In this document: positions 37,701-63,132 of the stretch, in pieces
How the letters are laid out: every line of letters starts with the position of its first letter
How positions within the stretch are numbered: position 1 is the stretch's first letter
Origin: Raillietiella orientalis
Taxonomy: Eukaryota
Reading direction: 5' to 3'
DNA: 64,000 bases
Assembly (NCBI GenBank): GCA_036172245.1
Contig: JAYWIR010000004.1
Span: 5,952,001-6,016,000, forward strand
Notes under the pieces: model-generated
Seen by the model: the letters and a program-made list of their open reading frames with translations, nothing else
Database searches by the model: none
Told to the model about the DNA's origin: nothing
Program-made: the position numbers and the translations under genes

Positions 37701-40700
37701 TTTAAGAGACTGCTGTTTCCAGACCACGACTTGGTCGTTGGTCGTTCTCTCCATTCGAGCTGACGTTTCGCTGTTCGTTATCTCTGGATATTCAGCGTCT
37801 TTAATCGCCTTCTCAACGATCATGTTTGCGATTTTTCGTTTTTGTTTTCCTTTTTATTTTGTTTTTCGCTTAGCGATGAAAGTTCTCTGATGCATCAGAT
37901 GCCTTGGGATTAATCTTGCAGACCAGCCAATTAAGAGACCGACTGGGTGTGCTGGCGCTGAATTTCAATCCGAGTGAATAAAACTCTGGGAAAAAGAGTG
38001 GAAAAGTAACAGCACGATTAAACGGACCTGTAGGCAGAATCCAAGAAAACGAGATCAAACAGTGAACGGTCGAAATGATAACAAAAAAAAAACATCCTTT
38101 TAAGAAAAGATAAGAATAAAGCAGGTAGATGACAATTTGCTTCCTAAGCAAGTTGAATACTTGATTCGGACCTCAGCATTCGATTTCGAGTGCTTTATAC
38201 CTATCATCTCCTGGAGCATTCCCCATCTCCATTTAATTTGTTACCGAAATTTCCATCCATTCTGCCCTCGTGCCGTCTCTGCGACCGGAGACACAGGTGC
38301 ATTCTTTCTGAGGCGAAATGAATCTTATCCGCGCTCCTCGGATCCTGTGGCTGGATGAAGGTTTTGAGATGAAAGCTGCGAGCCCAGCCATATGTGCTTC
38401 GTATCTGCTACACACCTACTAACCCTTAGTCGCTGGCGTTCCGGACTGACCTCAGGAAGAGCGCTCGCCTCTCCGATGACTCGGGGAATTTTCGCATCCC
38501 TTGCCAGTCAGCAGATCTGCGTCTCTCTGTGTTTCGCAGCCGGAGTCCCCATAGGATCCCATCTTCCTGGAACCAGTTTTTTTTTTCTCCAAGCATGGGA
38601 TCGGAGTTGATGTGTCTCGAAGTTTCCTCGGAAACAGATGTCTCTCAAGCTGTCCGAACAGCTTTCGATTGGAAAAGCGACGATCCAATCGTTGGATCCA
38701 CAAAAGGGCGGCGAAGCAGATCCAAAGGTACCAGACCAGGCAGGATGCTTTTCCATACATCTGAAATGCTACCATCGCTCCAAGGCAGGAGTGAACTGCG
38801 ATGCCTGAAACGTGAGCTCGTTCGCATCTCTCTCAAATGATCTCATGGTTTCGGCTGTACCTGCGAGGGAGCTATTTCTGTTGAACGCCTTGCATTTGAC
38901 ACTTGCATCCTGGAGTCATCTTCCCATTCGTTTCCCATTTTTTGACTGACTGCTGTCGCTGGCATCTTTGAAACGCTAGCTGGAGTCTTCTGCACCGTTT
39001 TCACCGATCTCCAGGCATTCAGACGAATTTCTCCTGCATTCCGATTTAGAGTCCCGAAAAGTCTCTCTCCCAACCTCCTATGTCACGGCTAAGAGTTTTG
39101 GAAGGCTTTCGTTCCTGGCGGCAAGCTAATAAATCACGTGATCCCGTTTCTCTTTGCGCGATTTGGGTGAAGAGGATTCGGTCGGAATACCGGAAGAATC
39201 AACAACCTGGCAGGGGTCCCCCTACCCCTGCAACCGGATTCATGTCCAACCGTTCGTTCCTCTCTTTTTCGTTTGGAATGATGGGAACCCTGAGTGAATG
39301 CTCTCCTCCAGAGTCTCGCTGGCGCAGAGAGCTCCAGGAATCGGAAGCGAGGCTGATTTCTCAAGGTCATCGATAAGGTCTTTTGCGGCACCCATGAGAG
39401 GGCGGTCGCGGCACGCTCTACAGCACCATCCGGCTCGGCCTCTCAGAGACTCGGTCCGCGCCCGTGTGGATCACTTCCGTGCCGCCGCCGCAATTCGCTG
39501 TGCGGTTTCTTCTTCTTTTTCGAACCACGTGATTCAGATCAAGGTCACAAGCACGTTTCCGGGACTCCTTCTTCCTGCTCCGAACGTTCCTCCCCCTCCC
39601 TTGCTCCCATTTCTCAAAGGTGCTTCCGAAAGAGCGCGGTGTTTCCCTCAGCAGGTAGCACTCAGTGGCGCGCATGCATGCCAGGATGTGGACGTGTCCA
39701 CTGCGTTCTCCAACACGGGCGCACTCGGAGTTCTCAGAGCGGCTTCATTCACCACCTTCCTTCAGTTTGCTTGCTCGCTGAGCATTCCAGCCCCCGGCGG
39801 TCGTCGAGCCACCGCGGTGTCCACTCGGGCGGGCAAACTTCCTCCCTCCACGATCGAGCGTAACCATGGGGGCGGTGCCTTCCACCGTTTGGGGAGATGC
39901 CGAGTTTCGCTCCTTCCTGCATCGCCGCGAACTCTTCGGCCTCCCTCGAACGCTTTCGCCGTCCACGAGTGGTGCTGCACGCTAGCGGCCGTCTGTCTGC
40001 GGTCTCCGTCGTGAGTTCGAATTCCACAGGGGGAAGAAAGATCGACACTGAAAATGGGGGGGAGGGGGGTCAGCGTGGACCAACCAGCGTCGTCATTCCG
40101 CAGGATAACACTGGTTGGCCTGCAGGTTCCGGGTGGAAACTGGAAACGGAATGCTCCCGTTGATAGGCCAGGATTGGGAGTTGACCCTCTGGGATTCTTC
40201 CAGTTCCCTTCGGAGCCCCCTCCGGCTGCAAAAATGGAGCCCTCCCAGCAGACGTTGGAGTGGGGCCTCCATCCTTTGCGAGCCATGGAGCTGGTTGACT
40301 GACACCTCTCCAGAGGGTGAAATGCGCTGCTCTCTTAGGGAGCGACCCTTCAGTGAAAATCTGGAAGCGTACCTTCAGAGTCCTCTTCGTAGGAAAAAAC
40401 AAGGAGAGGTTCCCTTGCAGGTGCCCTCTGGAGAAGAAATGAGGAGTGGCACCCTTTGGGGGACCCCTCCGGAGAGAAAGAGGGAGGGATTCTCTTCGGA
40501 ACTCCCTCCCAATTGTGAGAGGAACGGACTCCTTCCTCCGGAGTCCTTCCTAGATTCATAGGGTGGTCCCCTCCCGGGGAACCCCCAACTGGAAGAGTTA
40601 GACTCACCCCTGGATGGGGTGGACATCATTAAAGAGTTTCATGAGTCTCCCCTAAGGCAGCAACGACTCTTCAGCACTTCAGACGATGGTCAGGCGGACC

Positions 40701-43700
40701 GCTAAGCCCGATGGCCGCCGACGCGCGTCCATCCCTCCACGTGGCCCCTGCGCTCCCCACCCCTTCCATCGTGGGAGCAGCGATCGAGGGTGGATACGAA
40801 CCCGGCCCTTGCAAAAATTTATTGCGAGCACTCCGGGACGAAAATAAAATCAGCAGTGTTTTTGGAAATCCCAACTGGCTTTTTGTCAAGCGAATTTTTT
40901 CTTCTTCTTCTTCTTTTCGCATCCTTTTCTCCCAGCTCTTCTCGGACTCGCGTTCCTTTGCTAAGGAGAAGAGCAAACGAGCGCGAATGTAAAGCAAAAC
41001 GAAAAGTAAAGCGAGGGAGCTCAAATGCTGCTTCCCTTCTTTCCTTGGGGAAGAAGCTGCCTCCAGTCAGCTCTCCTCACGCTCCTGGCTTCGCCACCCT
41101 GACCTCCGACGGCTTTCCTCGCGCACGAGCCTACGGGCAGCCCGGATTCGAAATCGCCCGCGAGCAAGCGTCTCCGCTCTTTCTCACCACCAGCGTCCCT
41201 AGCCGTCCCGCGTCTCAATCCTTCCAGGAAAATCCGGAGCACCTGGGCGGACGCGTCCCCAGTCCGTCACGAGTCGCAGCCACCGCCCTTCGCCCACCCG
41301 CAGGTCCCTTCGCGAGTTTCGAGTGCGCACCTCCCGTTGGCAACGGGAACGGGTGGGGAAGGGCTCCTTGCCGGCCCGTAGCAGCTCTCTGCGCACCCGT
41401 CGCCTCCTCTTCCCTGGAGGTTCATGCGTGCCCTGCGAGCGGAGGAAAACGCGTGCCAGAAGGGATGTTGCCTCCGCGGTCGCTGCAAGCTGGGCGGCAG
41501 GGAGGATGCCTCCCAGGCGAGCGAGGGGCAAAGGTCACCACTATCCAGCCGGTTCCTCCGCGACGCCTCGTCGCCGCATTCCCTCCCTACCCCTGCAGGG
41601 ACCCACGGAGACGCAACGACCGACCGCGGGACGTACCGCGTCTCGAGAAAGGTCTTGGAAATTTCCTCGCGGCCATCTTGGTCGCTTCTTCTTCGGAGGC
41701 AGAGCGCGGGGTCCGCGAAGTGGTGCTGGAGGGAAGGTCTGCCACTCGAAGAAGCGGACCTCGGCGCGTTCCTCTTCGTCGAAACGTGCGCCCGAGGGTG
41801 GGGGTCGGGGGAGGGGGGCGAAGCTGAAGGGCATGTTCCTTCCGTGGCTCTGCCCGCACGCCGACACGCAAGGGTTGGACGGTCCCCGAGAGCTTCGCCG
41901 ATAGAAAGCCCCGGGATTCCGAAAGGGAGAGGCAAGGGGGGAGAGGAAAGGGAGGTCTAAAGGGAGTCGACCGACCGACCTCTTGACACGTTGCTCCTGA
42001 CCGCGGCGGGGCGACCGACTGAGAGAGCCGGAGAGCTCGGGGCCGAGTTCGCTCCTGGCCTTCCCCTTCAACCGCCACCAGCACCACCATTACCACCACC
42101 ACCAGCCAACTCCGGACGCAGGCGCGCCCGCCTACCGACCCCGCTCCCGGCTCGCTCCGCAGCGGCAGAGGGAAAGGACGGGGCGTCGCACTCGACGACT
42201 CGCCGTGCGCAGCCGCCAAGCGCCGTGACTGCGCCGCCGCTGCACCCCGCGCGCTCGGACACGCCGTGTGCAAACATTCCGCGTCGGGCTTCCGAGGTGA
42301 AACGTAACGTCTTCCCGACTCCGCGATGTGCCAAAAAGGGGATAAAATATTTCCGACAATGAGCTCTCGTTTTCCGTGTTTGGCCACGCTTCAATCTGTT
42401 CTATTTTCGTCTCCTGGAGAAGAAGAAGAGAAGGTTCCTCGAAGAATGATGGAAATCAAATTCCTCTGCCGCTTCCTCCTCTTCCCCCTCCCCACTCCCC
42501 CCTCCTCCCCTTCTTACCCCATCCTCCTCGGAACTGGCCGCTGCCGGGTGGCTCGCTGGGAGCAGCCGACCCCGGGAGCTCCCCTCATTGCTCGTTCCTG
42601 CAAGCTGCTGGCGCCTGAAGATGGGGAAAAGAGAAAAAGGAAGATGTCGACCTCCAGCAAGCGAGCACCCGAGGGCGGGCGATCACTACTGGCATGGGGA
42701 GGATCGCCCAAGCCCTCCGCGAGGTGTCCCGATTCCCCTCGAAACGGCGGTCTCGGGCCGGACCGGGAAAACCGGGCAAAGAGGGCAGGCTGCGGCTTAC
42801 CCGCGCGCCCCACTGCGCGGGTCTTCCGTGGCTTCGACCGCCGCCTCCGCTGGCAGCCGCCCGCCGGATGCAGATCTCTTGCTCCGCTGCTACCCTGTCC
42901 GGTTTTTTCCGGAAGCCTTGGATGGCCTTCCCGGGGGGGAGGGAGCGGGGCCCGAGGAAGGAAGAGATGCTCCGAGGGTGAGCGTTTCTTTTCTTTTCGT
43001 CTTTTGAAGGGAGGGAGAGGAAAGGAGAGGTCCAGGGCTCGCCCCGTGAGCCCATTACGAATAGGGGAGATCCCTGCCCCTCTCTCGGGGTCAGCGGAGC
43101 GGGAGGAAGCTGCGAACTGGCTGGCGCCAGCAGCGCCACCCGGCCTTGGAGTGAGGAAGGAGTGACGCGCGGGGAAGACGACAAGGCTAGGTGGGCCCAC
43201 CGTGTCTTTCCGGAGTTTGGACCTCCCCTTTGGTCCCCATCCAGCCGAGGACCGCTCCTTTCCCACTACGCCCATCCTCAGAGCGATCCTACGACTCTTC
43301 CCAATGCATCTGCTGTGCCCGCTCCCACCACTTCACCCGCGCGCGCGCAGGCGCACCTCCCCTATGAGACGGCGCCGACGTCCGGCGATCGCTTTCCGCC
43401 GTCGTGAGGCGCAGTCCCGGGAGGCGCCCTTTGACCAGGGGCGGGCATTTCCGGGAAAGCGCTCGAGAGACGCGTCTCCTCCCGGTATCCCTTGGAGACC
43501 CTTCCGAAGGCGAACGGGGAAAAGGAGAAGAAAGGGGGCAGCGTCTCCGCTTCCCCAGGGCGGAAAGGAAAGGTTTCCAGGCAACGGCAGCTTGCGGGCG
43601 CGGAGGGGATCAGTGAGATCACCTGCGCGTCGTCTTTTGCGGCTCATGAGGGGGAAGAGTCCAGGCAGTTCCTCCACGCCCCCGTGGAGGGGGGTGCGAC

Positions 43701-44319
43701 CGCCGCCCCTCCCGAGGGACTCTCGCGCCGAAGCACGGAGAGATGCTCAGGAAAGCGGAAGGAGGGGCCCGGAGGAGGGAGATTTTGTCTTGACTTCCCC
43801 TTCTTCCCTCCCAGACTCTCCGAAACCCGCAGGGACGAGGTCCCCCAGCGGATCCTTGCCCCCCCAGGAGCGTCCGCTCGTTCGAGAAGCACCCGGAAGC
43901 GCTCCGGCAGTGGGGGTTTCCAGGCAAGGTCGCCGCTTGCCCGCTGCCCCTGTCGCCCCGGAAAAGGAAAGACTGGGGAGGCCTCCGGGGGAGGGTCAAT
44001 CCCCGAGGGTCTTGAGGAGAAGGACGACTGCCTCGTTTCCCTGGTGAGTCTGGGGCGCAGCCTACGAGGATCTTCGACGCCGAGAGGTGGGCGAACCTCC
44101 ACAGCTGGGTGCGTGGTGCCCGTCCGTCCATTCTTACCTACACGCTCTCCCTTCCCTCCAGGGAACGCGCTCTGACCGCAAGAAGCGCCGGTCCTCCCGT
44201 TCATAGGGGTGGGTACGGACGTGGCGGAATGACCGCTCCGTGCAAAGGAGAAGAGGGTGGTTCCCCAGCGCACCCACTCCGCGAACACCCTCGGAAGCTT
44301 CGCGGGGAGGGGGGGGGAG

Positions 44320-44577
44320 CTTCAGGCTCTCTCCCCCACTCGCCCAGGCTTCCCTTGGGAGGGGAAGTCTTGGCGGGAAACTCCCCCCAGGGGATCTCGA
44401 GAGCGTGCTGTAACACCCCCAGAGAGTCATCTGGCACTCCCGCCGAAAAGGGAGGAGGGGATCGCTCCCGGCCCCACTTTCGAGAGGGCGGGTCGGGGCC
44501 AAAGAGTAGCGCGAACGGATCTCCCACTAATAGGGGAGGCGGTCGCAAGGGGCCGACGGGTGAGCCACTCCCGTCCT
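44320..44577 (+). repeat. Left arm of a long inverted repeat (partner 46793-47048)
   Basis: Manual alignment to the reverse complement of 46793-47048 is nearly ungapped at roughly 80% identity, e.g. GTCATCTGGCACTCCCGCCGAAAAGGGAGGAG vs GTCATCTGGCTCTCCCGCCGAAAAAGGAGGAG. Confidence 0.92.
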
Positions 44578-44614
44578 GCACCACCGCCCTCTCGAAAGTG
44601 GTGCCGGGAGTGAT
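44461..44614. repeat. Local 31-bp inverted repeat (44461-44491 / 44584-44614), 92-nt loop
   Basis: ATCGCTCCCGGCCCCACTTTCGAGAGGGCGG pairs with CCGCCCTCTCGAAAGTGGTGCCGGGAGTGAT: 29 Watson-Crick pairs, 1 G-U, 1 mismatch. Confidence 0.93.
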
Positions 44615-45049
44615 GTGCCCCATTTTTGTTTTTTTTTTTCTTCCCTTCCCCTTTTTTGACCGACGGCTGTCCCCCGTAGACTCTGCGAGACCCCAGCGCC
44701 GCATCCCCGCGGCGGCGCTCTTGGACAACCCTTCCGACCACCGCGCTTGCTCGCGACTCGGCCCCCTGCGGGTGGGGTCGTCGTCCCCCCCCTCCCTCTT
44801 TCTCCCCTGCTTCTTCTTCGAGAGGGTATAGATCCTGCGCTCCGCTTCTGCCTTAGGAGGCAGGGGAGGGGAGAGGAAAGGCGAACCCCCTCGCGAGTAC
44901 CGTTCACTCCCAGCGCCTTTCCCCCGGATGTCGCGCGAAAGCGCGGCACGCGCGCGGAGGTCCCCTCGACCGAGCCGCGGAGGAGGGAGGGAGAGAGGAG
45001 GGAGGAGGAGGAGGCGAGGCGCTCCAGAAAGCCAGGAGAGCGGGGAGAG

Positions 45050-45300
45050 ACAGGGATTCAAAAAATAGCAACCTTCTTGGTACTTCGCCCGCGCAGGTGC
45101 GTTCCGCGGGCGGATGGGGGCGGGAAGAGAGGGAAGGCCGGGAGCGATCCGGGATTCCGGGCATCAGTGCCGTGCGCGAAGCCGAAGGAAACGATTCGCC
45201 CTCCGGGTGTCCCTCCTGCAGCAGCAGCAGCAGCAGCCAGAGCGCGCGCGAGTCGTCCGTGAGAGTCCCGTCGAGTTCACCAGGAAGGACAGTCAAATAG
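45050..45300 (+). promoter_or_regulatory. Candidate internal promoter / non-coding first exon for the 45.4 kb isoform
   Basis: CpG-rich; one-mismatch MEF2-like CAAAAAATAG near 45059-45068; Inr-like TCAGTG at 45164; candidate donor TAG|GTAGCG at 45301 and acceptor at 45388. All motifs are short and imperfect. Confidence 0.3.
45219..45236. repeat. (CAG)6 microsatellite in the putative 5' UTR of the internal isoform
   Basis: Repeat read directly; the UTR assignment is inferred. Confidence 0.8.
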
Positions 45301-45401
45301 GTAGCGCCGGGAAGGTGTGGGGAAGGAGGGGTCGAGTGGGAGGGGGGGTGAAGCGGGACCGGGTCCTGAACGGGCCTCTTCTTTCAAGCCGGAGGAGGAG
45401 G

Positions 45402-45607
45402 ATGGATCAAGTGGCCGAAGTGGTGACCATCGAGAAGAAGAGGACCAAGAAAACGGTCAAGTCGACCAAGAAGACACGAGACGAAAAGGATGGGCGGGAA
45501 GTCGTCACCGAAGTCCGCACCGAGATCACCGAGATGAACGACGAGGGGGACAGGGACTACGATAAAGAGCCAGTCAAAGACACCAACGATTTTTCGGCCC
45601 TCGAAGA
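45402..45607 (+). CDS. Lmpt: Probable alternative N-terminal coding exon (MDQVAEVVTIEKKRTKKTVKSTKKTRDEKDGREVVTEVRTEITEMNDEGDRDYDKEPVKDTNDFSALE) of a 4.5-LIM isoform
   Basis: Clear codon-like, K/T/E-rich stretch unlike the flanking low-complexity DNA; ATG in context GGAGGATGG; candidate acceptor CTCTTCTTTCAAG ending 45388 and donor GA|GTAACG at 45608 (phase 2). Resembles, from memory, the basic-then-acidic leader of short arthropod Limpet isoforms. Confidence 0.72.
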
Positions 45608-46792
45608 GTAACGTATTTGGGGGGACCACCCCCTCGCTGCGGGGGGAAGGGAGGAACTCCCTGTCGGGCCCCTCTGGCGGAGGAGGAACGGGCGGCGCGA
45701 GGCGGGCGGGGGACGCAGCACGCGCGCCGGGAGGAAGAGGAGACACCAGGGAGAGGAGGAGGCTTTTGCCCCCCTCTCTCTCCCCCCTCTCCCTGAAAAC
45801 GGTGCGCCCATCCCCCTTCTGCGCAAAAAGTGCCCGTCTGCCCCCCACCCTCCTCCGTGCGCGTGGGTCCCTCCCCTCCCCCCGCCGTGAGGAGCCTCAG
45901 GGGTACTTCTCCCCCCACCCTTCCTCCCCAGTCAGTCCCCTCCCACACACCGCCCCTCCCACTCTTTCACCGCGGTGTACCCTCCCTCCCCCCCTCAGGC
46001 GGCGGGAGGGCGCCCCGTCCACAGTCGACCCCCGCACCACCCCCGAAAGTCGTTTGATTTGACTGGCTCTTTATGTGGCTCCACGAAAGGTAAACACCCC
46101 CTCCTTCCCCTTTTGCTCCCCCTTCTCCCTCTGCAGGGAGAGCTGGAAAGGCCTCTGGGCGCGAGGGGGAGCGGGAGGAAGGCGATGCTCCCGAGCTTGG
46201 GGCTTGACCCTGGCGCTCACCCAAGACCTCTTCGAACCCCTGACATTTCGGACAGCCCCTCCCCCCCATCTCCGAGCCGCCCCTCCAGGTCCCTCCGGAA
46301 TGCCTCAGCGCCGCCGGCGCTCTCCGCCAGGGTCGCCACTGTTGCTGCTCAGCCGGCTCTCTTTTCCTCCCAACCGTCATCCGTCCCTCCTCACCGACCC
46401 CCTTCCTCAGGAAGAAGAAACCCCACTTGTCCCCTGGACCTGGGGTTCCTCCCGGAAAGAAGAGCGTGTCTTCACCTCCCTTCTCCCCGGGCGTCCTGGC
46501 GCCCTCTCCGTGAGACGAAGCCGAGTCCGCAGGTGCAGGGGGAAGGGTTGGGGTGATGCCTGGAGAGCTGCGTCTCTCCGGAATGCTGCGGGAGGAAGGC
46601 GCCTCCCTGGAACCACCTCTCCTCTTTGGGGTCTCCAGCTTGAGTGTCTGTCGGAAGGGAGGAAGCAGGGGGGGAAGAGAGGACCTCTGCCTTCCCAGGG
46701 CGCTTCTGGGAAGACTCCTCTCCTCCTTTCCCGTGAGAGCCTCTGCCCCCGTGAGCACCTCCCCCCTCCGCGACCCGGAATGAAAGGCGGAA

Positions 46793-47048
46793 GGGACAGG
46801 AGTGTCTCGCCCATCGGCCCCCTGCGACCGCCTCCCTCGCTGGTGGGAGTTTCGTTCGCGCCCCTCTTTGACCCCGTCCCGCCCTCTCCAAAGTGGGGCC
46901 AGGAGCGATCTGCTCCTCCTTTTTCGGCGGGAGAGCCAGATGACCTTCTGGGGACGTTCCGTGCGCCCTCGCGATCCCCCGGAGGGCGTTTTCCGTCAAG
47001 GCTTCCTCTTTCGAGGAAAGCAGGTGGGAGGGGAGGGAGAGTCTGAAG
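46793..47048 (-). repeat. Right arm of a long inverted repeat (partner 44320-44577)
   Basis: Same alignment; also visible as homologous translations in ORFs 44109..44831(+) and 46407..47282(-) (SSGTPAEKGGGDRSRPHF vs SSGSPAEKGGADRSWPHF). Confidence 0.92.
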
Positions 47049-47121
47049 GGTCTCCCCCCTTCCTCCGGGCGCGCGCCGCCTCACAAGGACGGTCTCCCTG
47101 GCAGGAGGGGTCGCGCTCCGA

Positions 47122-47161
47122 TGACCTTTGCTGGCGCTCCAAGCGGCGCCAGCAAAGGTCA
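47122..47161. repeat. Perfect 16-bp hairpin, 8-nt loop
   Basis: TGACCTTTGCTGGCGC-TCCAAGCG-GCGCCAGCAAAGGTCA. Confidence 0.9.
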
Positions 47162-47348
47162 CGGTCGCCTCCTTCCAGAAGGAGCCGAGCGCTTGAGCTG
47201 CCCGCCCCCTCCGGACCCGGAAGAGCACCCCCGCGTGCGGGCGGACGCGCACGAGATTCCTCCCTCCCTCTTCTACCACCACCCCTGCATCCCCCAGCAG
47301 GCCGCGGGTCGCCGGAAGGCGCGATCGAGGAAGGAGACGGCAATGGAT

Positions 47349-47388
47349 GGAACGTCCGTCCGTCTCCGGGGAGCGGGACGGACGTTCC
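47349..47388. repeat. Perfect 13-bp hairpin, 14-nt partly paired loop
   Basis: GGAACGTCCGTCC-GTCTCCGGGGAGCG-GGACGGACGTTCC. Confidence 0.85.
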
Positions 47389-50300
47389 CCACAGGCACGG
47401 CCTTCCCGTGACCGCGAACTCCTCAGGGGAAAGAAGAGGGGGACGGGGTCAGCGGAGTGAGAGGAAGAAGGGCGCTTTCAGAACCCTTTTCCTCCTCCCC
47501 CGTCCCTCCTCTTACGCTGACCGCCTCCCAGGTGCCTTCGAAAGCGAAAGCGGCGGCTCGCGACTCGCGAGCCCGCCGCGCGCAGCAGCCTCGCCCTGCT
47601 GTCTCCCGGCAACGAATGGCAGGGCGCAGTTATTTTGAGCCGACCTTTCCCGGCGAACCGCGCTAAATGCGTCCTCTCCTCTGCTCCCCTGTCAAAGTCA
47701 CCGCGGTGACACGGGAAGCCTCTCCGCGCGCTTCCCTCCTCTCGCGCGCCGAGCTTCCTCACGCGCCCACCCCGGCGCCACCCTGCGCTTCCTTCTCGTC
47801 GACGCCCCCGCGTTCGTTCTTCCCGTCCTGAGGCCGAATGCGCCCCAGGAGTGGGAGCTGCGCCTTCCTTCGAGGTGCTCCTCCCTCTGCCTCGCAAGCC
47901 GCCAGGACCAATACCAGATAGGGCACTGCTCGAAGCGCTCTGCCCGCTCTTCCCGAAGAGATCTCGGTCGGTTGCCCCTGGCTCAGGGAGTGGGAGGCGG
48001 GACCGTGGGATGTCCTCGAAGCCTCGACCTACGAAGAGGGCCGGAAGCGACCGTTTCAAAGGGCTTCCGCCGGGACAGGCGGCGCACATCTCCCGCCTTC
48101 GAGCACCAGCGCAGGGAGGGGGAGCTCCTGGTTCGCGCGGGAAAAGGGAACGCCAAATGGCGAGGCGCCACGTGTCGATTTCCTGTTCGCCCCCTCCTTC
48201 GTGGACGCTAGCCAAAACGGCAGCGAGTGACGGGTCCGTTCTGTATCTCTCCGGGTCCTCCCCGAGCGCAAGCTGCGCCACCCTTTTCCCTTCGCGGAGT
48301 TTCCCCTCACTTCTTTCCCGGCTCCGCCGAAGCTCCTGCCGCCGGCACTCCCTGCGTCGAGCGAAGCGAGGCAGGCAAGGCGGCATCTCTGGGGCTTCTC
48401 CCCTCCGTCGGCGCCCTCGCGTTTTTCAGCTGAACGGTTTCGGCGCGAGGGACGCGGGGCCATCCGCGCGTGCCCCTTGCGTTCCGGCCTGCGGAGCCTC
48501 GAACTCCCGCCGCCGCGGAGCTCTGGCGGCGCCTCCGCGGATGGGTGGGCGTTCTTCGCACCGGCTCCGTCTTGTTCCTTCGAGCGGAATGCTCGCAGCC
48601 TCGGATCCTTCCTGGAGGTCCTCCTCGACGTGGCTCCCATCTCCGATGCTCGGCGATCGATCATTCCATTCAAATCGCTTTCACTTTCCTCGCGCTTGCG
48701 ACACCGCCTCGACCTCAAACGCTGAGGGATTTGCGCAGCATGGATCAGGTCGGTATGCTCCTTTTGTGGCGGGACCCCCACTCGCCCTGGACCGGGAGAC
48801 GGCGCGACGTCCAGTTAGACGTTTTAACTCCCCTCCCCCCCACTCCAGTTCCCTCCCGCTCGATCGGACACCCACTCCGAGGTTGCCTCCTTCTGCTACT
48901 CCCGCGTTCTTCCTTTCTTGCGTGCCTCTGCGGCGCCTTCCTTCTGGAAGACCGCGACCAGGAGGTCGCGACAGCGGCACCCCGCTGCTCGTGACAAGAA
49001 GCGAAGCCAGTGACGTAACCACGTTTATCTGGATGACAAAGAATTGCGTCGGTGTGGCCACAAACATGGCCTCTCGCGTTGCACAACGTGGAACGATCTC
49101 TTGCGCCCAGCTTCCGCCGCCGAGACTGGCCCGGTCCTCGCCTGCAGAACGGTTCCGTTGCGCCCGGGACAGCATCCTGTCAGATGGCTTCACGCGAACG
49201 GCAGCCGGCTTCCTCTTTGTTTATCTTAGGCTCGCACGCGTTTGATACGGAGGGAATATTTTTAACTGCGGGCGGCGAGGATTGGTCCAGATTTCGGATT
49301 CTGCAGCGTTCTCGTGCGCACACTCAGCGTCTCTCCTCCCCCCTTGTTTGCTCGTTTGCTGGATCGCCGCGCTGATGCCGGAGCTTTTGCCTCAGGACGA
49401 GTCATCTCCAGCCGTTTTGTTCCCCCGCAGCGACTGTTGAGGTCTTCCTCTTGCAGTGGCGCGACCCTGGACGCCCACTTTTTTTTCTTTGCCTTTTTTG
49501 GTCCTCCGTAAGAGGATTCGAGAGGCGCTCCTTGCGGAGCCGCTTTCGCCGTGCCAGGAGTATCTTGGAAATGACGAATGGGAGCAGCTCGGGAGAGCGC
49601 TGTCTTCCTGGGCCCATCGGGCGGGACCCGATCGGGTCGAAGCCAAGGGATTGCGCGTTACCCGGGAAGGCGCTACCCATCCAGTCGAGATCCTCGGTCT
49701 TGTTGCAAGCGTTTCCGTGCTCCTTCGGACGTTGCTGTAACGCCCTCTCCGGCGAACTGCGAGAATCCTCCCGCCGGGCACAGCATGGACCGCGAAGAGC
49801 TGGTGCACCTTCCTGCCATTACTACAGGGAGCAGCGTAGGGGCTGAGCCACGTCTCCTCTGCGCAACAGCACCCAGAGGGTCTCCTCCTTGGTCACTCAC
49901 TCGGTCTGCGACCATGGATGATTGGAGAGGCGGCAGACTTCTTCCAGACTGCTCTCTTTCTTTCTGCTTTAGACCCACCGTTCTGGGGAAACGCCGTCCG
50001 TCTGCCTTCCCTCCCGCTCCCCCCTTCCTTTTCTCTTTTCCGGTCCGCCGCGCCTCTTTGGTCCCTCTGAAAGCTGCGACGCTGCTGCCCGATGACGAAC
50101 CACCTCTCCCGGCGATCGTCCGCCCCGGGCGTTCTTCCGGCGTGGCTTTTTTTTTGTTTTCTTCAGCGTCCCCCGAGCTTCCTGCGGCAGCTGAAGTGCG
50201 GAAGCCCAAGCTGCCGCAGAACCGAACTGCACGGAAACCTATCCGACTGATTGTTATCCTTTAACTCGGATACGCGCTGCTTTTGGAATCCGTCCATCCT

Positions 50301-52176: not shown

Positions 52177-52377
52177 TTGATTTTTAGTGCCGAATACACC
52201 AAAGCGATGAACCGGGATTGGCATGCAGGCCACTTTTGCTGCTGGCAGTGCGACGAATCCCTGTCTGGGCAGAGATACGTGCTCAAAGACGATCATCCCT
52301 ACTGCATCCGTTGCTACGAAGCACTGTTTTCCAACACTTGCGAGGAATGCAACAAAATCATTGGCATCGACTCCAAG
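52177..52377 (+). CDS. Lmpt: Coding exon: rest of LIM2 and start of LIM3 (LIFSAEYTKAMNRDWHAGHFCCWQCDESLSGQRYVLKDDHPYCIRCYEALFSNTCEECNKIIGIDSK)
   Basis: TTTCTTTGCAG acceptor, 201 nt, phase 0/0, AAG|GTACAA donor. Confidence 0.96.
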
Positions 52378-53230
52378 GTACAACCACCATCATCTGCGCC
52401 CTGCCGCGCTTTCTTTGCTGGTTGGGAACCTGTTGCCGATTCCTGGCGTCCGAGTCTTGTCTGGTGCCGACGGGGACGGCCCTGAATTTCGCTCCCCCCC
52501 CTCATTTTTTTTTTTTTTTTTGTTTTTTTTTTTACCTTGCTTTGAGATTTCTTCCCCGGTACTCTTCGGTTATGCTGCTCGCAATCCCGAGTTACAGGAT
52601 CCAGTACCCTCTGCTGCCAGCTTGGACAACCCATTCCCCAATCTGCAGGTGAAGTTTCTCCTCTTCGGATATCAGCCGCCCGCGCCTACCAGTGAACTTT
52701 CAGTTTCCAGCGTTAAGCCCTGCCGCGAAAGTAATGACCCATATTTTTTTTGGCTTTTTCCCACCCATTCAGTTGTCGCACTTTGCAACCGGGTCGGATG
52801 ATTTATCTTACATTATTCTTCCACTTGACGAGATGCTGCTGAATCTCCACGAACCCGTAACTCCTCGAAATGGCCCGTGCCTATCGTCGTGGTCGTGGTC
52901 GGTACCCGCGCACGCGCAAATTCTCTGCCCACCCCGTCTGGGATCCCCACTCGAAGGAACAGAGCGCCAGTTTCTCGGGAATGCTTCCGGGGCAGGGAGA
53001 GGTCTGGGTGGAACAGCGGGAGGCCCGAAAGCCGTCGAGCTTGTGGGGACTTCCCACCGGGTGGTTGAGAAGAGGAGGGTAAGTAGCTCCCCCTCCCATT
53101 CGCGAAAGCAAAGGCTCCTGCACATTTCGGGGGTGGGCATGCCTCCTCGATGACTAACCGGGGCGGCTTGGACCAGGCAACGTGGACATGTCCCACCTCG
53201 GATGCCCAGTGATCGAGTTGTCTCTTCCAG

Positions 53231-53405
53231 GATCTGTCATACAAAGACAAGCACTGGCATGAAGCCTGCTTCCTGTGTAGCAAGTGTCGTGTGTCTCTGG
53301 TGGACAAGCAGTTCGGTAGCAAGTTCGAAAGGATTTACTGTGGAAACTGCTACGACTCCCAGTTCGCCACCAGATGCGACGGTTGCGGGGACATTTTCAG
53401 GGCCG
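53231..53405 (+). CDS. Lmpt: Coding exon: rest of LIM3 and start of LIM4 (DLSYKDKHWHEACFLCSKCRVSLVDKQFGSKFERIYCGNCYDSQFATRCDGCGDIFRA-G)
   Basis: TCTCTTCCAG acceptor, 175 nt, phase 0/1, G|GTAAGT donor. Confidence 0.96.
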
Positions 53406-56073
53406 GTAAGTTCTTCCTCGGAACCAGTCCCGCCGCGCCTGAGGGAGCGGCAAGCACCCCGGCGAATCGCTCTGCTCTCCATCTTCCGTTCGGCTCCTGA
53501 GATCTCACCCTCTCCCATTCGCCTTCAAGCTCCTAACCCACCAACTCTTCCCTGGTGCTACCGTTCCCGAGCGTGTGCGTCTAAGAATAAGCCGTCTTCC
53601 GTCTTCTTTCGCGGCCACGCTCGCGACAACGAGATCCTCAATCTCTTCTTGCCCACTTCACTGGTCGCATCCCTGTCGTCAGTCCTCCCTCAAGATCGGC
53701 CCCCCAGTAGGGGAAGGTCGGTTGCCAACTCGTGTTCTGATAGTGCTCTGAGCTCGTTGCTGGAATCGCTATTATTAGCAGCAGCGCTCCGGACGCCACA
53801 CATCATTCGGAAACTTTGTTTTGACGTGCCTGTTGTGCGCCGGCGTGGGTAAGGCGACCATTGTCATCTCGAGATGAATGGTCTCTTCACTTGGATGACA
53901 AGACGCGCTTTTGTTTTCCCCCCTTCTCTGCCGATTCTTCCCAGCAGAGCTCATCTCCCTGCAACCCAGAGTATCACTCTCTGCGCTTGATAATTGAGGT
54001 TGCACCACCGTTGGGAATTCGGACCACCTCGTGCAATCTCCCCTTACGTCATCCCCTGTTTCCATTCAGTCTTCGCATTCCTTGTCTTGTCTTCCGTTTT
54101 CCTTTCTTTCTTTCTGGCAGTCCCTGGAGAAACCGAGTTTCAGACTGCAGTCCTCCTTCCCCTCGTTTTATTTTCTTTAGCTGCTCAGGTATAGACCGCC
54201 ATTACTCGTACGGCACAATACCACATAGCGTTGGCGAACCGAACATGACAAGAGAGGTCACTGAGCAACCACAACTTCTCGTACTCCGTTTCCCGGCCAG
54301 TCGTCAGCACGCCCCCTCTACTGCCGTTTTTGTGTTTGCTGATGCTCTTGCCCGCTCCCACTCGCGAGCTTGCCCGGCTGCGGAGGTGCCGGCGCCGGCC
54401 TTTCCCTCACTCAAGGGAGCGCAAAAGGCCTTCGAGCTCAGCCTAGGACTTGCTCGCAACAGCCGAGAGCGAGAGCGGAGGCGCGCCGCCAAGACCTCTC
54501 GAACCGCGCCGATCGCTCCAAAGGGGAGAAAGCGAAGCAGACATCACGTGACCTCCATCGCCAAAGTAACCGTCCTTCCAAAGAGCATCTAGTGGGACTT
54601 CACGGATCTCGGCTTCCAAAGAAGAAATCCTTCATTCCCTCTTTTCGCCTCCCGTCTCAAAGATGAACAGCCTGTCGGAGCTTCCGGATGTACTCCAGCC
54701 CGAGTGATTCTAGTCCTCTCGTCGAGCTGCTCAGCTTCCATCCGTGCCATCCGCTCTTTTTTTTCCCCGCTTTCCCGGGTCGTTCTGGCTGATCTGAACG
54801 AACAGTTGTCTTTTCGGATGCTCCATTCGGGCTTGTAGCTCTCCTGATCGGGATCTGACCTTTGAGGGGTGCGGCGCGTTCCCAATTCATGTGGCAACAG
54901 AGATCAGCAGCACGAGTCCTACGTCCGTTCTTGGCTGCCGAGTTCTTTATTTGTTCTTTTCCTTCTTCCAAAAGGAGTGGGTACTCCAGCCGATCCTTTC
55001 TGACCTTCCGGGACAAAGGAGCTTCCAGGGTTCCTTCTCGTCCAGTGTCCCTTTACGGAGGGCGTACGATGAGGGTGCTCCGTGCCAGAACGAAGAGATC
55101 TCGCGAGACTATGCGGTGGAAGATGTGCTTTTGTGACAATGCCCTCCTCCGTGTCTGTCGAGTGCTTCCAGTCTTGACCCCGCTGCTCCCGGGCACAGCA
55201 CTCTTGCACCTCACAGGCAGTCCTTCAAAACGCCTGGCTTGGGAGCTTCTGTCAGAAAGGGCCGGGCTAGGCCCTCGTGCCAACTGGACGCGCGGAAGAG
55301 CGACCTCCGCAACCTCCTCAAAGTGTCCAGCCGGGTTTGTTTCGAGAGAAGCGGCGGCGAACAAGGAAAAATCAAGGATCCATCCATCCTTAACCGCGGT
55401 GGCGGAAGGCGAGCTACATCCCGAACCATAGGCGGGATGGAGGAGAGGCGGCTGCCCTCCGGGATGTAACAGCAGAGCGGAACTCCTCCGCGGTTAAGAA
55501 CAAGTAGGAGCTCCTCGGACTGCCACCGGAGGTCTCCTGGACCCCATCCGAAGTTCCTCTTGCCTCACAGAAATTGGCGGCGAGGCGTAGGACCGCGCCA
55601 TTCTTCCTTCGGGAAGGAAGTGTGGCTTTCCTGAGCGTCTGCGTGGGCGCGCTCTCCTGGCAGAGTGATCGCCCCTCACCCAAAGGCGACGGTTCGCCAT
55701 GCCACCTCCCCGCTGCGGGAGATGGCCACGCGACCAACTCAAAGTTGTCGGGCGTTCCCACAGCCGCATGATGGAGCTGCGACCTGCCCTTCGCGTAGGG
55801 GAACACGCGGGGATGCGGTGCTTCCGATCCCCCTTTCGCTGTCTGGGGTAGCTGAGGGCTGCTGACGCCCCGAGAAGATTGCTTCCTGGGCGTTGACAGA
55901 GATCGAGCGGGTCACCACCACCACGGAAGCCATCCACACTCAAGAGTCGGAGGAGCTCGCGCGGAAAAAAATCAATGGTTGCACGAGGCTCGTACGAGTC
56001 GGTGACGAGCCGAGAGGCAACAAAGGGATGCGGGCGCGTTGCTATGGATAAGCGGGTGCTTCTTCGTCTTCGA

Positions 56074-56091
56074 GTGTGTGTGTGTGTGTGT
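56074..56091. repeat. (GT)9 microsatellite
   Basis: Read directly. Confidence 0.85.
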
Positions 56092-56762
56092 TTTTTTTTA
56101 TCTCGTTTGTTTGTTAGTTTGTTCATGTTTTTGTTTTCGTCTGTTCTCTTTCTTCGTCTTCTTTCTGGTCCCGCGACCGCCGTTCACGCAGACCCTGTTG
56201 CCCTGATACGTGTGAGTACAAAGTTGCGCGCGTGCCCGACGGTCGGCAGCAGTCCAGCGCAGCCGTATGCGAGGGTTTCAAGGTCAGTACCATCGGACGG
56301 CCTCGCTTCATCCCCTCTCGACAACCATAAAAAATGAAAAACAAGGGTGCTTCTGCATTTTGAGGGAAGGAGGGAGGGAGTCCGAGGGATGGTTGGAGCT
56401 AGAAGGAAAGGAGAATGGACCACTTCCAGGGAGCCTCTTTCCCCTTGTCGTCGCCGTTGCCGATGGCGACGGCGACGACTGACGGGGGCAGCGTGTGACA
56501 GTTCCCGTCTTCCACTCCGCCTTCCCTCCGTGGCCGGGAAGTTCCACCCGCGGAAGAAGGGTGGAAAGCGAAGAAAAAAAAAAAAAAAAAAAAGCAGAAG
56601 CCTTCTTTCCCTCCTCGCGCTCCGCTGCAGCTACTGCCGACCGCTGTCCGCGATACGCGCCCAGGAAACGACCACGTACAGTTACAGGACGAGAGAAGGC
56701 AGAAAACCACAACGTGCGAGCGCTCCCCCGTGTGACTGCCATCGATCGGGTGCAGCGGAGAC

Positions 56763-56937
56763 ATGTCGGAGAGTGAAGCCGCCGCCGCCGCCGCCGCCGT
56801 CGCGGCCGAGGCGAACTCGAAGCCTCCTGCCGAGATGGACGAGGCGGCCGTCCTGTCAGAGCTGCTCCCGGAAGACACGTTCCTCTGTGACAGGAAGGAG
56901 CAGTGCCTCGAAGGTGACCCGCGGAAGAAGGAACCAG
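56763..56937 (+). CDS. Lmpt: Probable alternative first coding exon (MSESEAAAAAAAVAAEANSKPPAEMDEAAVLSELLPEDTFLCDRKEQCLEGDPRKKEP-G) of a 2.5-LIM isoform
   Basis: ATG at 56763, acidic protein-like frame with (GCC)7 poly-Ala; CAG|GTACCA donor at 56938 is phase 1, matching the acceptor at 57110. An alternative phase-1 donor AAG|GTGACC lies at 56914. Confidence 0.6.
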
Positions 56938-57109
56938 GTACCACCTCTTCAGCCGCCCGTTGCACGCCGACTCCACGAGGCGGAGGCAGCGCTCGCTTGC
57001 CCTTCCTCCTCCCCCTCCTCCCCTGTTCCGTCCTCCTCTTCCTCGTTTGGCTCGTCCTGCTTCCGACGGCGGCGCTCTCGTTCCCTCTTAACTCCTCCTC
57101 CCCCTCTAG

Positions 57110-57279
57110 GAATGAAGAAGATGGAATACAAGATGCGCCAGTGGCACGAGAAGTGCTTCGTCTGCTGCGTGTGCAAGCAGGCCATCGGCACCAAGTCCTT
57201 TATCCCCAGGGAGCAGGAGATCTACTGCGCCAACTGCTACGAGGACAAGTTTGCGATCCGCTGCATCAAGTGCGGGAAG
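57110..57279 (+). CDS. Lmpt: Coding exon: rest of LIM4 and start of LIM5 (G-MKKMEYKMRQWHEKCFVCCVCKQAIGTKSFIPREQEIYCANCYEDKFAIRCIKCGK)
   Basis: C-rich pyrimidine tract plus TAG acceptor ending 57109; 170 nt, phase 1/0; AAG|GTTAGT donor. Confidence 0.96.
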
Positions 57280-57346
57280 GTTAGTCCGGGTCCGCCGCTC
57301 TGGAACGAACGGGAACGCGCTCGCCTCCCCTCCTCTCCTCCCCTAG

Positions 57347-57533
57347 GTCATCACGGCAGGCGGAGTGACCTACAAGAACGAGCCCTGGCACAAGGAATGC
57401 TTCACCTGCACGAACTGCAACACATCGCTGGCCGGCCAGCGCTTCACCTCGCGCGACGAGAAGCCCTACTGCGCCGACTGCTTCGGAGAGCTCTTCGCCA
57501 AGCGCTGCTTCGCCTGCGGGAAGCCCATAACAG
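57347..57533 (+). CDS. Lmpt: Coding exon: rest of LIM5 and start of LIM6 (VITAGGVTYKNEPWHKECFTCTNCNTSLAGQRFTSRDEKPYCADCFGELFAKRCFACGKPIT-G)
   Basis: Follows a 67-nt intron ending CCCCTAG; 187 nt, phase 0/1; CAG|GTGCGT donor. Confidence 0.96.
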
Positions 57534-57943
57534 GTGCGTGGGGCACAAGCGCCTTTGTCACGCGCTCCCTTCTTCCCCTTTCTCGTCCTCCGGCGCTCCC
57601 GAGTGTGCATCAACAAGGTGGGGGTCGCAGCCCTTTATGCAGCTCCCACAAGGCACTCCGTTCGGAAGATAGCGGAAGAGGGGGCAAGTAGGGAGCGCGC
57701 ACCTCCCATCCAACTTTCCTCCTGCTTTTCCCAGACGCCAAAAGCGCGGCTCCGGAACACGGGAGGTCCGGCTCGCGGTGGCAGCGACCCCCAAGCGAAT
57801 TAGTTCCTCACCTCTCCCTTTTCCTCCGACGCACGCGCACTCCTCGCCGGAAACCCCTCGGAGGAAAGAATCGTGGATCCTTCCCTCCGAACACGTCTCG
57901 GCTCTCCTGGAGGACCGGGGTCATCGTTCTCCTTCTTCTCCAG

Positions 57944-58101
57944 GCATCGGCGGCACGCGGTTCATATCCTTCGAAGACCGGCATTGGCACAACGACTGCT
58001 TCTACTGCGCCGTGTGCAAGAACTCGCTCGTAGGCAAGGGCTTCATCACCGACGAGGCCGACATTCTCTGCCCGGAGTGCGCCAAGCAGAAGCTCATGTG
58101 A
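57944..58101 (+). CDS. Lmpt: Terminal coding exon: rest of LIM6 (G-IGGTRFISFEDRHWHNDCFYCAVCKNSLVGKGFITDEADILCPECAKQKLM*)
   Basis: CTTCTTCTCCAG acceptor ending 57943, phase 1; TGA at 58099-58101. Confidence 0.96.
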
Positions 58102-58159
58102 GGACACCGCCCGCGCGCGCGACTAGGACGGCAAGAATAACGACGGCAGCTTCCTGGCA

Positions 58160-58165
58160 AATAAA
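58160..58165 (+). terminator. Candidate proximal polyadenylation signal AATAAA
   Basis: First AATAAA after the stop codon; the downstream U/GU element is weak. Confidence 0.35.
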
Positions 58166-61100: not shown

Positions 61101-63132
61101 AGGACGGGAGCGACTTCCGCTCTCTCCGCGAGGCTTCCCGGCAGATCAGAAGAGCGGACGAACAGATGGCCTCGAGAGATCCCGATAACCGGGAAAGGCC
61201 GCCGGGGAGGTGACCGTGGTTGGAGGCAGGCTTCGCCGCCCCGGCGACGGCCTCGGCAGAAACGGCGCGCGGCGATCCCCACGTGTCAGTGGAAAATCGT
61301 CCCGAGGAGAGGGTCCCTCGGAGTTGTCTTGACGTCTTCCGAGGGGAGCACTGAAGGCAGGGGAGGGAAGGGGTCTCTCCCTCTTCCCGTAGGAAAGATG
61401 AGGAAGGGACGCGACCTGACCTCATTCCCTCCACTCGCTCCCGAATTCCCGCTGCAGCGAGGCGAGGGCAGGGAAAGGCGAGGAAAAGGAAGGAAGAGAT
61501 ATGATGACCACCAGCTTCGTCTTCCGAAAGCTTCTCCCCCTACACCCTCCCCTCCCTTCTTCCCCCCTCTTCCAGGACAAGCAGCGAGAGTTCGGGGTCA
61601 CGGCGAAGGCGGCAGCGAGTGGATGGCATCGGTCTCGTTGATCCGCAGCGAGGGCAGGGAGGCACGAAGACAAGTTCTGAGGAGTCTGCCTGGACACTGG
61701 CCGTTTCCCAGTGCACTCTGCTCCCGTGCCGCCTCGCACAGCTTCTGGAGCCAGAGAGAAACGCCTTCAGCAGAGGGATCGGTCTCCTAGTGCACCCGAG
61801 GTCACTCCCCCTCCCTCAGGAAAAGAAAAGGGTGCGGGCAGTAGCTTCGTCATGGACCAGCAGGAAACTGAACGGGACGGGATGGCGGGAGCGCCAGAGT
61901 CCCAGATGCTGCCACCCAGGGCAGGCAAGAGTACCGAAAGCAGCATCTGAGACCCTTGCTTTCCTGGGTCAGCATGTCGCGATGGGAATGCCTCTTTTAC
62001 CATTGTTCGAATGCTGCAGAGCCACCTCGCATGCACCTCGAGCATACTTGGAACCGGAATCGACCGAGATCTGTCTCCGGATCACGACGTCAGCTTCGGT
62101 TGGCACAAAAGACCACCTGCCGCAGAAAAGAAGGGAGATGAAGGGGAAGAAAGATGTCGCCACGGCCAGAGACTTTCTGGTGTCTCGTCTCCCCTGAGAA
62201 GGAGACCTTCTCTCGGCTTCCCCTCCCAGAAATGCAATCCTCTCCCGAGACCCCCTGCTCTTCCGCGCACGCACAATGGTCGGCCTCTTCTAAAAAGCTC
62301 CACACCTCACGGTCGTCCGCGCCACTGCTGCAAAGAAGAGGGGAAACTCCAGGGGTTCGGCCTCAACACCCAACACCCCTCCCACCCTTCCCCTTACTCG
62401 GCGAACCTTCTCCTTGCAATGGGAACGCGAGTTCGATATGGGATGAACAGAAGAAGCAGCAAAAGATGGCGAAGAAAGGGAGAGCAGCGCACACAGCCCA
62501 AAGGCTCCGCCCAACTGAGTGGACAGGTTCTCTTCTGGAAGCCGAGGTAAGGGCGAGTGTGACGTCTCCCGTGTTGCCCTCGGATGGTTCGGGTGGATCC
62601 AGCTATGCTGAACACGGTTTCCACACCGCGCCTCGGCCCAGTCAGTGCAGTGGGCTGAACGATCGAGATGCGGATCGAGCAGCCACCGCAACGAAAGCTG
62701 AAAAGGAGCACCCAAGACCTCCCCGAGAACAGGGACGACGGTGCGGGCTCTGGGACCACCTCGAACTGTGCGGACCCCGAACCGCTCTGTTCGCGGCGTG
62801 CCCCTTTCCCAGAAACCTTACGAGTCGGGCATTTCCCGACGACCAGAACGTTCGCACTCCCCTTTCGATCTCTCCGAAACGCATACGGCAAAGGCATCTG
62901 AGGTTCCTCCTGGAAAAGGAGAAACTAGGAACACTCTAATCGCTTCGTTCCTCCCTGACGGAGTTTACTCTTGTGCCCTTTCGGACCGTTCGTGGAAGGA
63001 GGACGGGGACGAACGCATGCCCCACTTCACTCCGGAATTTGCTGGAGTTGCAGCCAGGCTAAGAGTAGTTGTTGCTCGCTGAGTAGCGGCGAATCTGCCG
63101 CTTCTGTCGAGCGACGCCTCGCGTGGAAACCG

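Follow-up and report, generated by a model that had tools for sequence, protein, structure and literature searches.

The window (the whole 64-kb stretch of DNA analysed) contains a gene that sequence homology identifies as the arthropod Limpet (Lmpt), a PET/LIM and FHL-like muscle LIM gene. Homology places its LIM2 exon, the "half-LIM" exon common to all isoforms, at 52177-52377 on the plus strand. A search with this exon recovers 467 relatives at E<=1e-10, and the named relatives among the matches listed are arthropod Limpet, FHL, and prickle-like proteins; identity to insect Limpet proteins is 82-84%. Further, a tblastn exon map aligns five downstream exons, in order and with 72-90% identity, to fly, planthopper, cricket, and horseshoe-crab proteins. 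The LIM1 exon of the long Limpet isoforms lies at 21447-21662 on the same strand and ends in phase 0 on a codon boundary (GAA/gtaagt), and the intron that separates LIM1 from LIM2 spans 30.5 kb. No match to the PET-domain exons was found within the window at E<0.1. Metagenome contigs yielded five loci for the LIM2 exon, four of them on contigs of 1.3-3.3 kb that reach at most 195-447 nt upstream of it and a fifth that matches 8 residues only; all five were set aside. Both the identity and the order of the LIM exons are those of Limpet, and between LIM1 and LIM2 sits a start exon that is T/K-rich and has the right junction.

This start exon occupies 45389-45607 on the plus strand, with an AG at 45387-45388, coding sequence from an ATG at 45402, and a phase-2 end followed by a GT at 45608-45609. 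The initial annotation had read it as an internal start-codon exon with both a candidate acceptor and a donor. Indeed, both dinucleotides are in place, and the exon matches, in position, motif, and junction, the one that encodes the N terminus of insect short Limpet isoforms. We compared the predicted peptide with three such isoforms, from Diachasmimorpha (P0090, 347 aa), from Gryllus (P0093, 350 aa), and a further protein of 346 aa (P0111). The N terminus has in common with the insects an M-(A)-D start, a basic stretch rich in T, K, and R, and the motif EV..TITE, and its junction with the LIM2 exon likewise falls one residue (D or G) ahead of (G/A)EYTKAM. The corresponding junction, 45607->52188, is in frame, and its conservation supports the donor 45607/GT. 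Identity of the start exon is 31-32% to the insects and 43% to a millipede segment (P0001, residues 459-514). A library-wide phmmer search with the peptide gave no significant Limpet match, its one match being a repetitive 2326-aa protein, and a word-index search of longer proteins gave no match. Since identity is low and phmmer returned no Limpet protein, orthology rests on position, motif, and junction, and on that basis 45402-45607 encodes the N terminus of a short, FHL-like Limpet isoform.

The long and short isoforms place different demands on the LIM2 exon, which has two tandem acceptors, 52177 and 52188 (+11 nt). Acceptor 52177 suits the phase-0 LIM1 exon, and 52188 is the only one to keep the frame after the phase-2 donor at 45607. 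Masking of acceptor 52177 by RNA pairing was considered and rejected; in an RNAduplex scan of the intron against it, the best of 1520 windows reached -33, where the mean was -19.4 (sd 4.1), and the top matches are purine-rich low-complexity stretches. The arithmetic by which the start exon had been called a poison exon is correct: entered at 45389 in the phase of LIM1, it is read in the open reading frame 45305-45565 and meets the stop TAA at 45563-45565. The candidate acceptor, ttctttcaag/C, includes an 11-pyrimidine tract, and it could instead belong to a short intron within the 5'UTR of the short isoform. Unless a 3' splice site upstream of it is used, a first exon escapes exon definition, and it can then be skipped without any RNA loop.

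On each side of the start exon lies one arm of a reverse-complementary repeat. The left (5') arm, delimited by alignment, is a non-coding segment at 44303-44576 on the plus strand with 67.5% G+C; the right (3') arm, at 46794-47067 on the minus strand, is its reverse complement with 79.7% identity over 276 columns. The local alignment (44303-44576 against 47067-46794) comprises 220 identical positions, 52 mismatches, and 4 gap columns. A blastn comparison gives nearly the same extent (44306-44576 against 47063-46794, 79.8% over 272 columns, E 3.7e-63), and a repeat search delimits arm cores at 44412-44576 and 46794-46958, 165 nt long, 84% complementary, and 2217 nt apart. Of the initial description, arms of ~255 bp that are ~80% complementary and 2.2 kb apart, the identity and spacing hold, whereas the arms are slightly longer at ~275 nt. 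The pair is far beyond chance and is the sole non-self match (one of one) in a self-blastn of the entire window at E<1e-6.

The left arm lies ~0.8 kb upstream and the right arm ~1.2 kb downstream of the start exon. The homology-based exon map puts both arms and the exon inside the LIM1-LIM2 intron, in agreement with the proposal that both arms would be present in RNA initiated at an upstream promoter. A loop of the same size placed at random within the intron encloses the exon ~7% of the time, a test made post hoc; on this measure, the fact that the one repeat pair in 64 kb brackets the exon hints mildly at something other than accident. Around the presumed internal promoter, where the arms lie, G+C content is high (60-67% between 40 and 50 kb). 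A T/CT-rich tract at 44622-44656 on the plus strand lies directly 3' of a local hairpin in the left-arm region, and no equivalent adjoins the right arm.

The best-kept stretch of the left arm in the alignment is a 31-nt core at 44461-44491 on the plus strand. Repeat search and alignment place its counterpart inside the right arm at 46879-46909 on the minus strand, and a third, short inverted copy lies at 44584-44614, also on the minus strand, 92 nt downstream of the left-arm core. The core thus has two possible partners, one local (44584-44614) and one distal (46879-46909), and each matches it at 29 of 31 positions. With the local partner it gives a strong hairpin, the fold of 44455-44620 reaching -101.8 kcal/mol. 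The better preservation of the core relative to the arms overall, together with a third copy that forms a competing hairpin, could reflect constraint. Formally, 44461-44491 with its two alternative partners resembles a Dscam1-type docking site that faces two selectors. Unlike Dscam1, Limpet has no cluster of mutually exclusive exons here, and the would-be selectors do not lie beside alternative exons. Competition between partners of the core at Limpet is an incidental consequence of the third repeat copy.

With 80% complementarity and a high G+C content, the two arms are predicted to pair in any RNA that carries both, looping out 2.2 kb that include the exon. Indeed, RNAduplex gives the arms -478.4 kcal/mol, compared with -215 +/- 10 for 100 shuffles, and in the minimum free energy structure of the 2871-nt segment, pairing with the right arm involves 240 of the 274 bases of the left arm. 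The pairing put forward in the initial annotation is therefore borne out as a prediction. Among the mismatches between the arms, 36 are transitions and 16 transversions. On the transcribed strand, 20 differences are compatible with G-U pairing and 16 are of the A-C type, so that no G-U bias is detectable (binomial p=0.62); an earlier manual count, which had found the two types about equal, was right. Considering the 16 transversions and 4 gap columns as well, the arm differences carry no sign of selection on pairing. Judged as a long-range structure, the pair accordingly combines a stable stem with an unbiased pattern of substitution. The K2P distance between the arms is ~0.23.

The origin of the repeat was approached through its coding potential, its boundaries, and its copies. 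Mismatches between the arms show no codon-position bias (11/9/6, p=0.48), Pfam assigned no family to any of the nine ORFs spanning the arms, and when the stretch of ORF 44016-44831 that lies in the arm was used as a protein query, none of 401 candidates received a score. Rfam returned 14 matches at E<=1, every one far below the gathering score. Homology between the arms stops at both ends, with an outer flank score of 21 against a shuffle mean of 20.9 and an inner flank score of 28 against a shuffle maximum of 29; on these scores the repeat is a discrete unit with sharp boundaries. Of the hallmarks of a transposable element that were sought, no target-site duplication of at least 6 bp is present (no flanking direct repeat exceeds 5 nt), ARAGORN found no tRNA gene in 43500-48000 and the repeat has no tRNA-like head, the two copies have no tail in common, with a T-rich tract following the left copy only, and the window holds no further copy of the arms. 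Similarly, the core motifs of the arms gave no match in the metagenome, genome, and viral contig collections.

We favor, by a modest balance of probability, the reading that the arms are a diverged and probably neutral repeat pair, a by-product with a possible molecular effect and not a selected switch. They would be diverged copies of one non-coding unit of ~275-320 nt, set in opposite orientation in the Limpet intron, having arisen presumably by a small local inverted duplication or by two nearby insertions of one repeat, followed by neutral drift. A pre-mRNA with its start upstream of 44303, such as one from the promoter of the LIM1-containing isoforms, would carry both arms, and by analogy with known cases a stem across the exon would reinforce its skipping in these long transcripts. 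Use of the AG at 45388 would also permit back-splicing into a 219-nt AUG-containing circle. An RNA that starts between the arms could not form the stem. The analysis demonstrates the repeat, the gene model, the homology of the exon, its frames, and the pairing in silico; we infer the origin, the transcription start, the splicing effect, and the neutrality, the last as judged from two copies.

Several known systems bear on how such a pair might act. At exon 2 of Drosophila laccase2, inverted DNAREP1_DM repeats flank the exon (75% over 106 nt and 69% over 272 nt), and their base pairing is reported to loop the exon out (Kramer et al. 2015, PMC4617980). The Limpet arrangement is similar in that an arthropod exon is flanked by a diverged inverted pair of comparable size and identity, here 80% over 276 columns. 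It differs in that the laccase2 repeats are members of a named high-copy family and sit very near their exon, whereas two copies are seen here, 0.8 and 1.2 kb away, and in that the enclosed Limpet exon is an alternative start exon with a candidate acceptor. According to the same report, conservation of the laccase2 repeats is missing from most sister species; function at that locus therefore does not depend on it. In zip-2, a stem across an exon favors skipping and circularization, the same consequence as predicted here, but the match there spans 13 nt and is conserved in five nematodes, compared with arms of ~275 nt in Limpet. On a broader scale, looped-out exons are reported to be less included, and annotated 5' ends and CAGE tags to be enriched inside loops, in a 2021 study (PMC8052449); conserved long-range stems of 9 nt or more are described in Drosophila introns by Raker et al. 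(2009, PMC2724269). Limpet resembles these PCCR and Raker cases in that long-range intronic pairing would loop out an exon, with an internal start exon inside the loop. The criteria for those sets, however, are conservation across species and compensatory substitution, whereas for Limpet the comparison of G-U with A-C differences within the one sequence is neutral.

The reading that competes most directly with neutrality is a selected, promoter-dependent RNA switch, in which the stem would hide the poison exon in the long pre-mRNA while transcripts from the internal promoter, lacking the 5' arm, would use the donor freely. Much of the architecture suits it: both arms lie inside the LIM1-LIM2 intron, their predicted pairing is strong, splicing to LIM1 would put the exon in the wrong frame, with a stop at 45563-45565, and its candidate acceptor carries the 11-pyrimidine tract. 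The only repeat pair of the window, too, is the one that encloses the exon (~7% by chance), human data document both the looping out of exons and the presence of 5' ends within loops (PMC8052449), and long-range stems modulate splicing in Drosophila (PMC2724269). We nonetheless consider such a switch unlikely. Pairing-preserving differences are not in excess (20 against 16, p=0.62), 16 transversions and 4 gap columns have accumulated, and the arms stand 0.8 and 1.2 kb from the splice sites. Further, a first exon can be skipped without any loop, and the same start exon is present in insects and a millipede. Slightly less credible still is that the arms drive back-splicing and that, by analogy with laccase2 exon 2, whose circle is driven by the flanking DNAREP1_DM repeats, exon 45389-45607 (219 nt, with AUG) is circularized from transcripts with both arms. 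An AUG exon with AG and GT, a long flanking intron, and an inverted pair whose length and identity resemble those given for laccase2 (PMC4617980) are all consistent with it, and reverse-complementary matches are described as promoting both circles and skipping (PMC8330042). Set against this, the acceptor is only a candidate, with an A at -3 that makes for a weaker site, the arms are not near the exon, and no paper linking Lmpt with circular RNA was found, as judged by title and the start of the abstract. Combining the two ideas, a selected device might couple promoter choice to the use of the Limpet start exon, which would be sequestered or diverted into an AUG-bearing circle, with 44584-44614 tuning the long stem as a local competitor; we regard this as no more probable than back-splicing itself.

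Two further explanations would leave splicing aside. The arms might act at the level of DNA, either as inverted duplicated regulatory modules (enhancer, insulator, or promoter-flanking) or as copies of a mobile element with a preference for the open chromatin of promoters. Their place in the G+C-rich block around that presumed promoter, the retention of the 31-nt core in three copies, and the sharp boundaries of the repeat unit would fit such a role, but inspection by eye against consensus sequences recognized no transcription-factor or insulator motif. The mobile-element version, for its part, lacks any hallmark and any further copy in the window or in the contig collections scanned, and we judge DNA-level action as a whole improbable. 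Least plausible of all is a hairpin that has no part in splicing and serves as a source of small RNAs, in the manner of an hpRNA-type endo-siRNA locus, or as a substrate for A-to-I editing. The intramolecular duplex is long and strongly predicted, and arthropods process long hairpin RNAs. Known hpRNA loci, however, are near-perfect hairpins with short loops that yield 21-nt RNAs, and an identity of 79.7% with a loop of 2217 nt is unlike them in structure; we give this reading very little credence. The neutral repeat pair remains the interpretation that we prefer.

Exon-flanking inverted repeats are a kind of element already known, and the Limpet pair is a new instance of it. For now, the pair amounts to two ordinary diverged repeats within a long intron, a candidate and not evidence of a new mechanism. 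In human genes, the configuration of an internal start inside an RNA loop is reported as statistically enriched (PMC8052449), and it has rarely been dissected. Limpet is a convenient test bed, in that its long and short isoforms have all downstream exons in common and need different tandem acceptors (52177 and 52188, respectively) to keep the frame. If the stem acts, this gene would provide a clean invertebrate example of an internal promoter inside an RNA loop, in which the site of transcription start would decide whether the structure can form.

LIM zinc-finger motif scanning and tblastn placed LIM-domain exons on the forward strand at 21447-21662 (LIM1), 52177-52377 (LIM2), about 53228-53407, about 57109-57282, 57347-57535 and 57943-58098. 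Searching with the LIM2 exon yielded 467 relatives at E ≤ 1e-10. Of these, the 120 matches listed are nearly all arthropod proteins with assigned names ("four and a half LIM domains protein limpet," "prickle-like," and "testin," with Drosophila limpet isoforms included), and their identity to the exon is 82 to 84% for insects and 71 to 79% for chelicerates and a millipede. On the basis of these relatives, the gene is identified by sequence comparison as an arthropod Limpet (Lmpt) orthologue. No PET-domain exon of Limpet turned up in the window, and searching upstream of LIM1 (1-21446) by tblastn with proteins of fly, horseshoe crab, and planthopper gave no PET match at E < 0.1; these exons may lie before the window's start. 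G+C content varies strongly, reaching 60 to 67% in blocks at 38000-50000 and 56000-62000, versus 40 to 45% in 0-12 kb and 24-38 kb, while CpG observed/expected is about 0.8 to 1.1 throughout, with no depletion seen.

The 30,514-nt intron between LIM1 and LIM2 holds an exon at 45389/45402-45607 and both arms of an inverted repeat. The exon sites named in the initial annotation are present (AG 45387-45388, ATG 45402, and GT 45608-45609), as is the frame that led it to propose a poison exon: LIM1 ends on a codon boundary (21662, GAA/gtaagt), and the reading frame from 45389 in that phase stops at TAA 45563-45565. The exon's donor at 45607 is in phase 2, with two bases left over. A second acceptor lies 11 nt inside the LIM2 exon (tttttag/T at 52188), and splicing from 45607 to this acceptor keeps the frame and places one D before AEYTKAM. 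Insect short isoforms share this layout, with D or G before GEYTKAM. Among the LIM2-exon matches listed are PET-less isoforms of 346 to 350 aa from Diachasmimorpha (P0090), Gryllus (P0093), and a third short Limpet protein (P0111), in which a basic, T/K/R-rich peptide of about 60 residues runs directly into the EYTKAM of the LIM2 exon. The peptide of 45402-45607 is 31 to 32% identical to their N termini, and its identity to a merged millipede model (P0001, residues 459-514) is 43%. A library-wide phmmer search with this peptide missed the Limpet relatives, its one match being a repetitive 2326-aa protein, and a word-index search gave no match; orthology is therefore based on position, motif, and junction. 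The shared junction identifies 45402-45607, at the level of sequence, as the conserved start exon of a short FHL-like isoform.

P0001 itself (817 aa, "hypothetical protein") apparently merges a testin-like PET/LIM gene with Limpet at residues 445-525 and reads the start exon as internal, which is probably a gene-model artefact. Upstream of the ATG lies a (CAG)6 run at 45219-45237. A donor-like AG/GTAGCG at 45300/45301 would, with AG 45388, delimit an 88-nt intron (45301-45388), suggesting that the candidate acceptor may be the 3' end of an intron in the short isoform's 5'UTR.

The inverted repeat is real and far above chance. A repeat search reported one long inverted pair in 43500-48000 (44412-44576 and 46794-46958; 165 nt, 84% complementary, 2217 nt apart), and comparing each arm region with the window by blastn extended it to 44306-44576 versus 47063-46794 (79.8% over 272 columns, E 3.7e-63). 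Smith-Waterman alignment gave 44303-44576 versus 47067-46794, with 220 of 276 columns identical, 52 mismatches, and 4 gap columns, so the arms are slightly longer than initially described. They lie 813 and 1187 nt from the exon and form the sole non-self match at E < 1e-6 when the 64-kb window is compared with itself. Beyond the right arm, 55 nt away, is a perfect 16-nt palindrome (47122-47137 and 47146-47161, 8-nt loop).

Folding of the arms is strongly predicted, a trivial consequence of 80% complementarity at 66% G+C. RNAduplex gives -478.4 kcal/mol for sense and -453.6 kcal/mol for antisense RNA, against -215 ± 10 kcal/mol for 100 dinucleotide shuffles, and when 44250-47120 (2871 nt) is folded to minimum free energy, 240 of 274 left-arm bases pair with the right arm. 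The left side also carries a short inverted copy of its 31-nt core (44584-44614 versus 44461-44491, 29/31), predicted to form a local hairpin at 44455-44620 (-101.8 kcal/mol), after which comes a T/CT-rich tract. The right-arm counterpart (46879-46909) likewise matches the left core at 29/31, yet 4 positions distinguish the local copy from the distal one; of the three copies, the left core therefore looks ancestral-like, with two competing partners.

Any transcript that begins upstream of 44303 would include both arms, and the start exon would then sit in the loop of the predicted stem. Published work documents the effects of such stems: the Drosophila laccase2 exon-2 circle needs pairing of flanking DNAREP1_DM repeats (PMC4617980), reverse-complementary matches in C. 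elegans favour back-splicing and skipping alike (PMC8330042), conserved long-range stems change splicing in Drosophila (PMC2724269), and looped-out exons of human genes are less included, with transcript 5' ends and CAGE tags enriched within such loops (PMC8052449). By analogy with these stems, the promoter-dependent switch proposed initially would be a known type of mechanism at a new locus. Its checkable premises (repeat, exon sites, and frames) hold, but we consider a selected switch unlikely. The need for it is doubtful: splicing would bypass an internal first exon anyway unless the upstream AG is used, and that AG may instead end the putative 5'UTR intron. The class of arm differences, the sole within-sequence test of selection on sense-strand pairing, comprises 20 G-U-compatible, 16 A-C, and 16 transversion differences plus 4 gap columns, with no bias toward preserved pairing (20 versus 16, p = 0.62). 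If a loop of this size were placed randomly in the intron, about 7% of its possible positions would enclose the exon, which is suggestive, though post hoc.

That the pair serves as a circular-RNA driver is quite unlikely; its physical features are comparable to those of the laccase2 pair as described, but its arms lie farther from the exon. That the arms are elements acting at the DNA level, or a mobile element that seeks out promoters, is very unlikely. As for the nature of the arms, homology ends sharply at both arm ends, alignments of the flanks score no higher than those of shuffles, and no flanking direct repeats exceed 5 nt. The arms contain no tRNA-like head, no Rfam match near a gathering score, and no Pfam family in the 9 ORFs spanning them; a protein search with an arm ORF found no relative, and the core motifs had no matches in metagenome, genome, and viral contig collections. 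Coding signal is absent, with similar amino-acid identity in all 6 frames and no codon-position bias among mismatches (11/9/6, p = 0.48). That the predicted duplex is a small-RNA or editing substrate is highly improbable. The transition/transversion ratio (2.25) and K2P distance (0.23) look like ordinary drift. We lean modestly toward a pair of diverged and probably neutral repeats whose incidental effect, in long transcripts, would be to promote skipping or back-splicing of the start exon.

The LIM1 exon, which ends in phase 0, can join the acceptor at 52177 in frame, and the start exon's phase-2 donor is compatible with 52188 alone. Judged by these phases, long and short isoforms must splice to different tandem acceptors, and the same junction in insects implies that the choice of first exon and the choice of 3' splice site must be coupled, putatively across arthropods.
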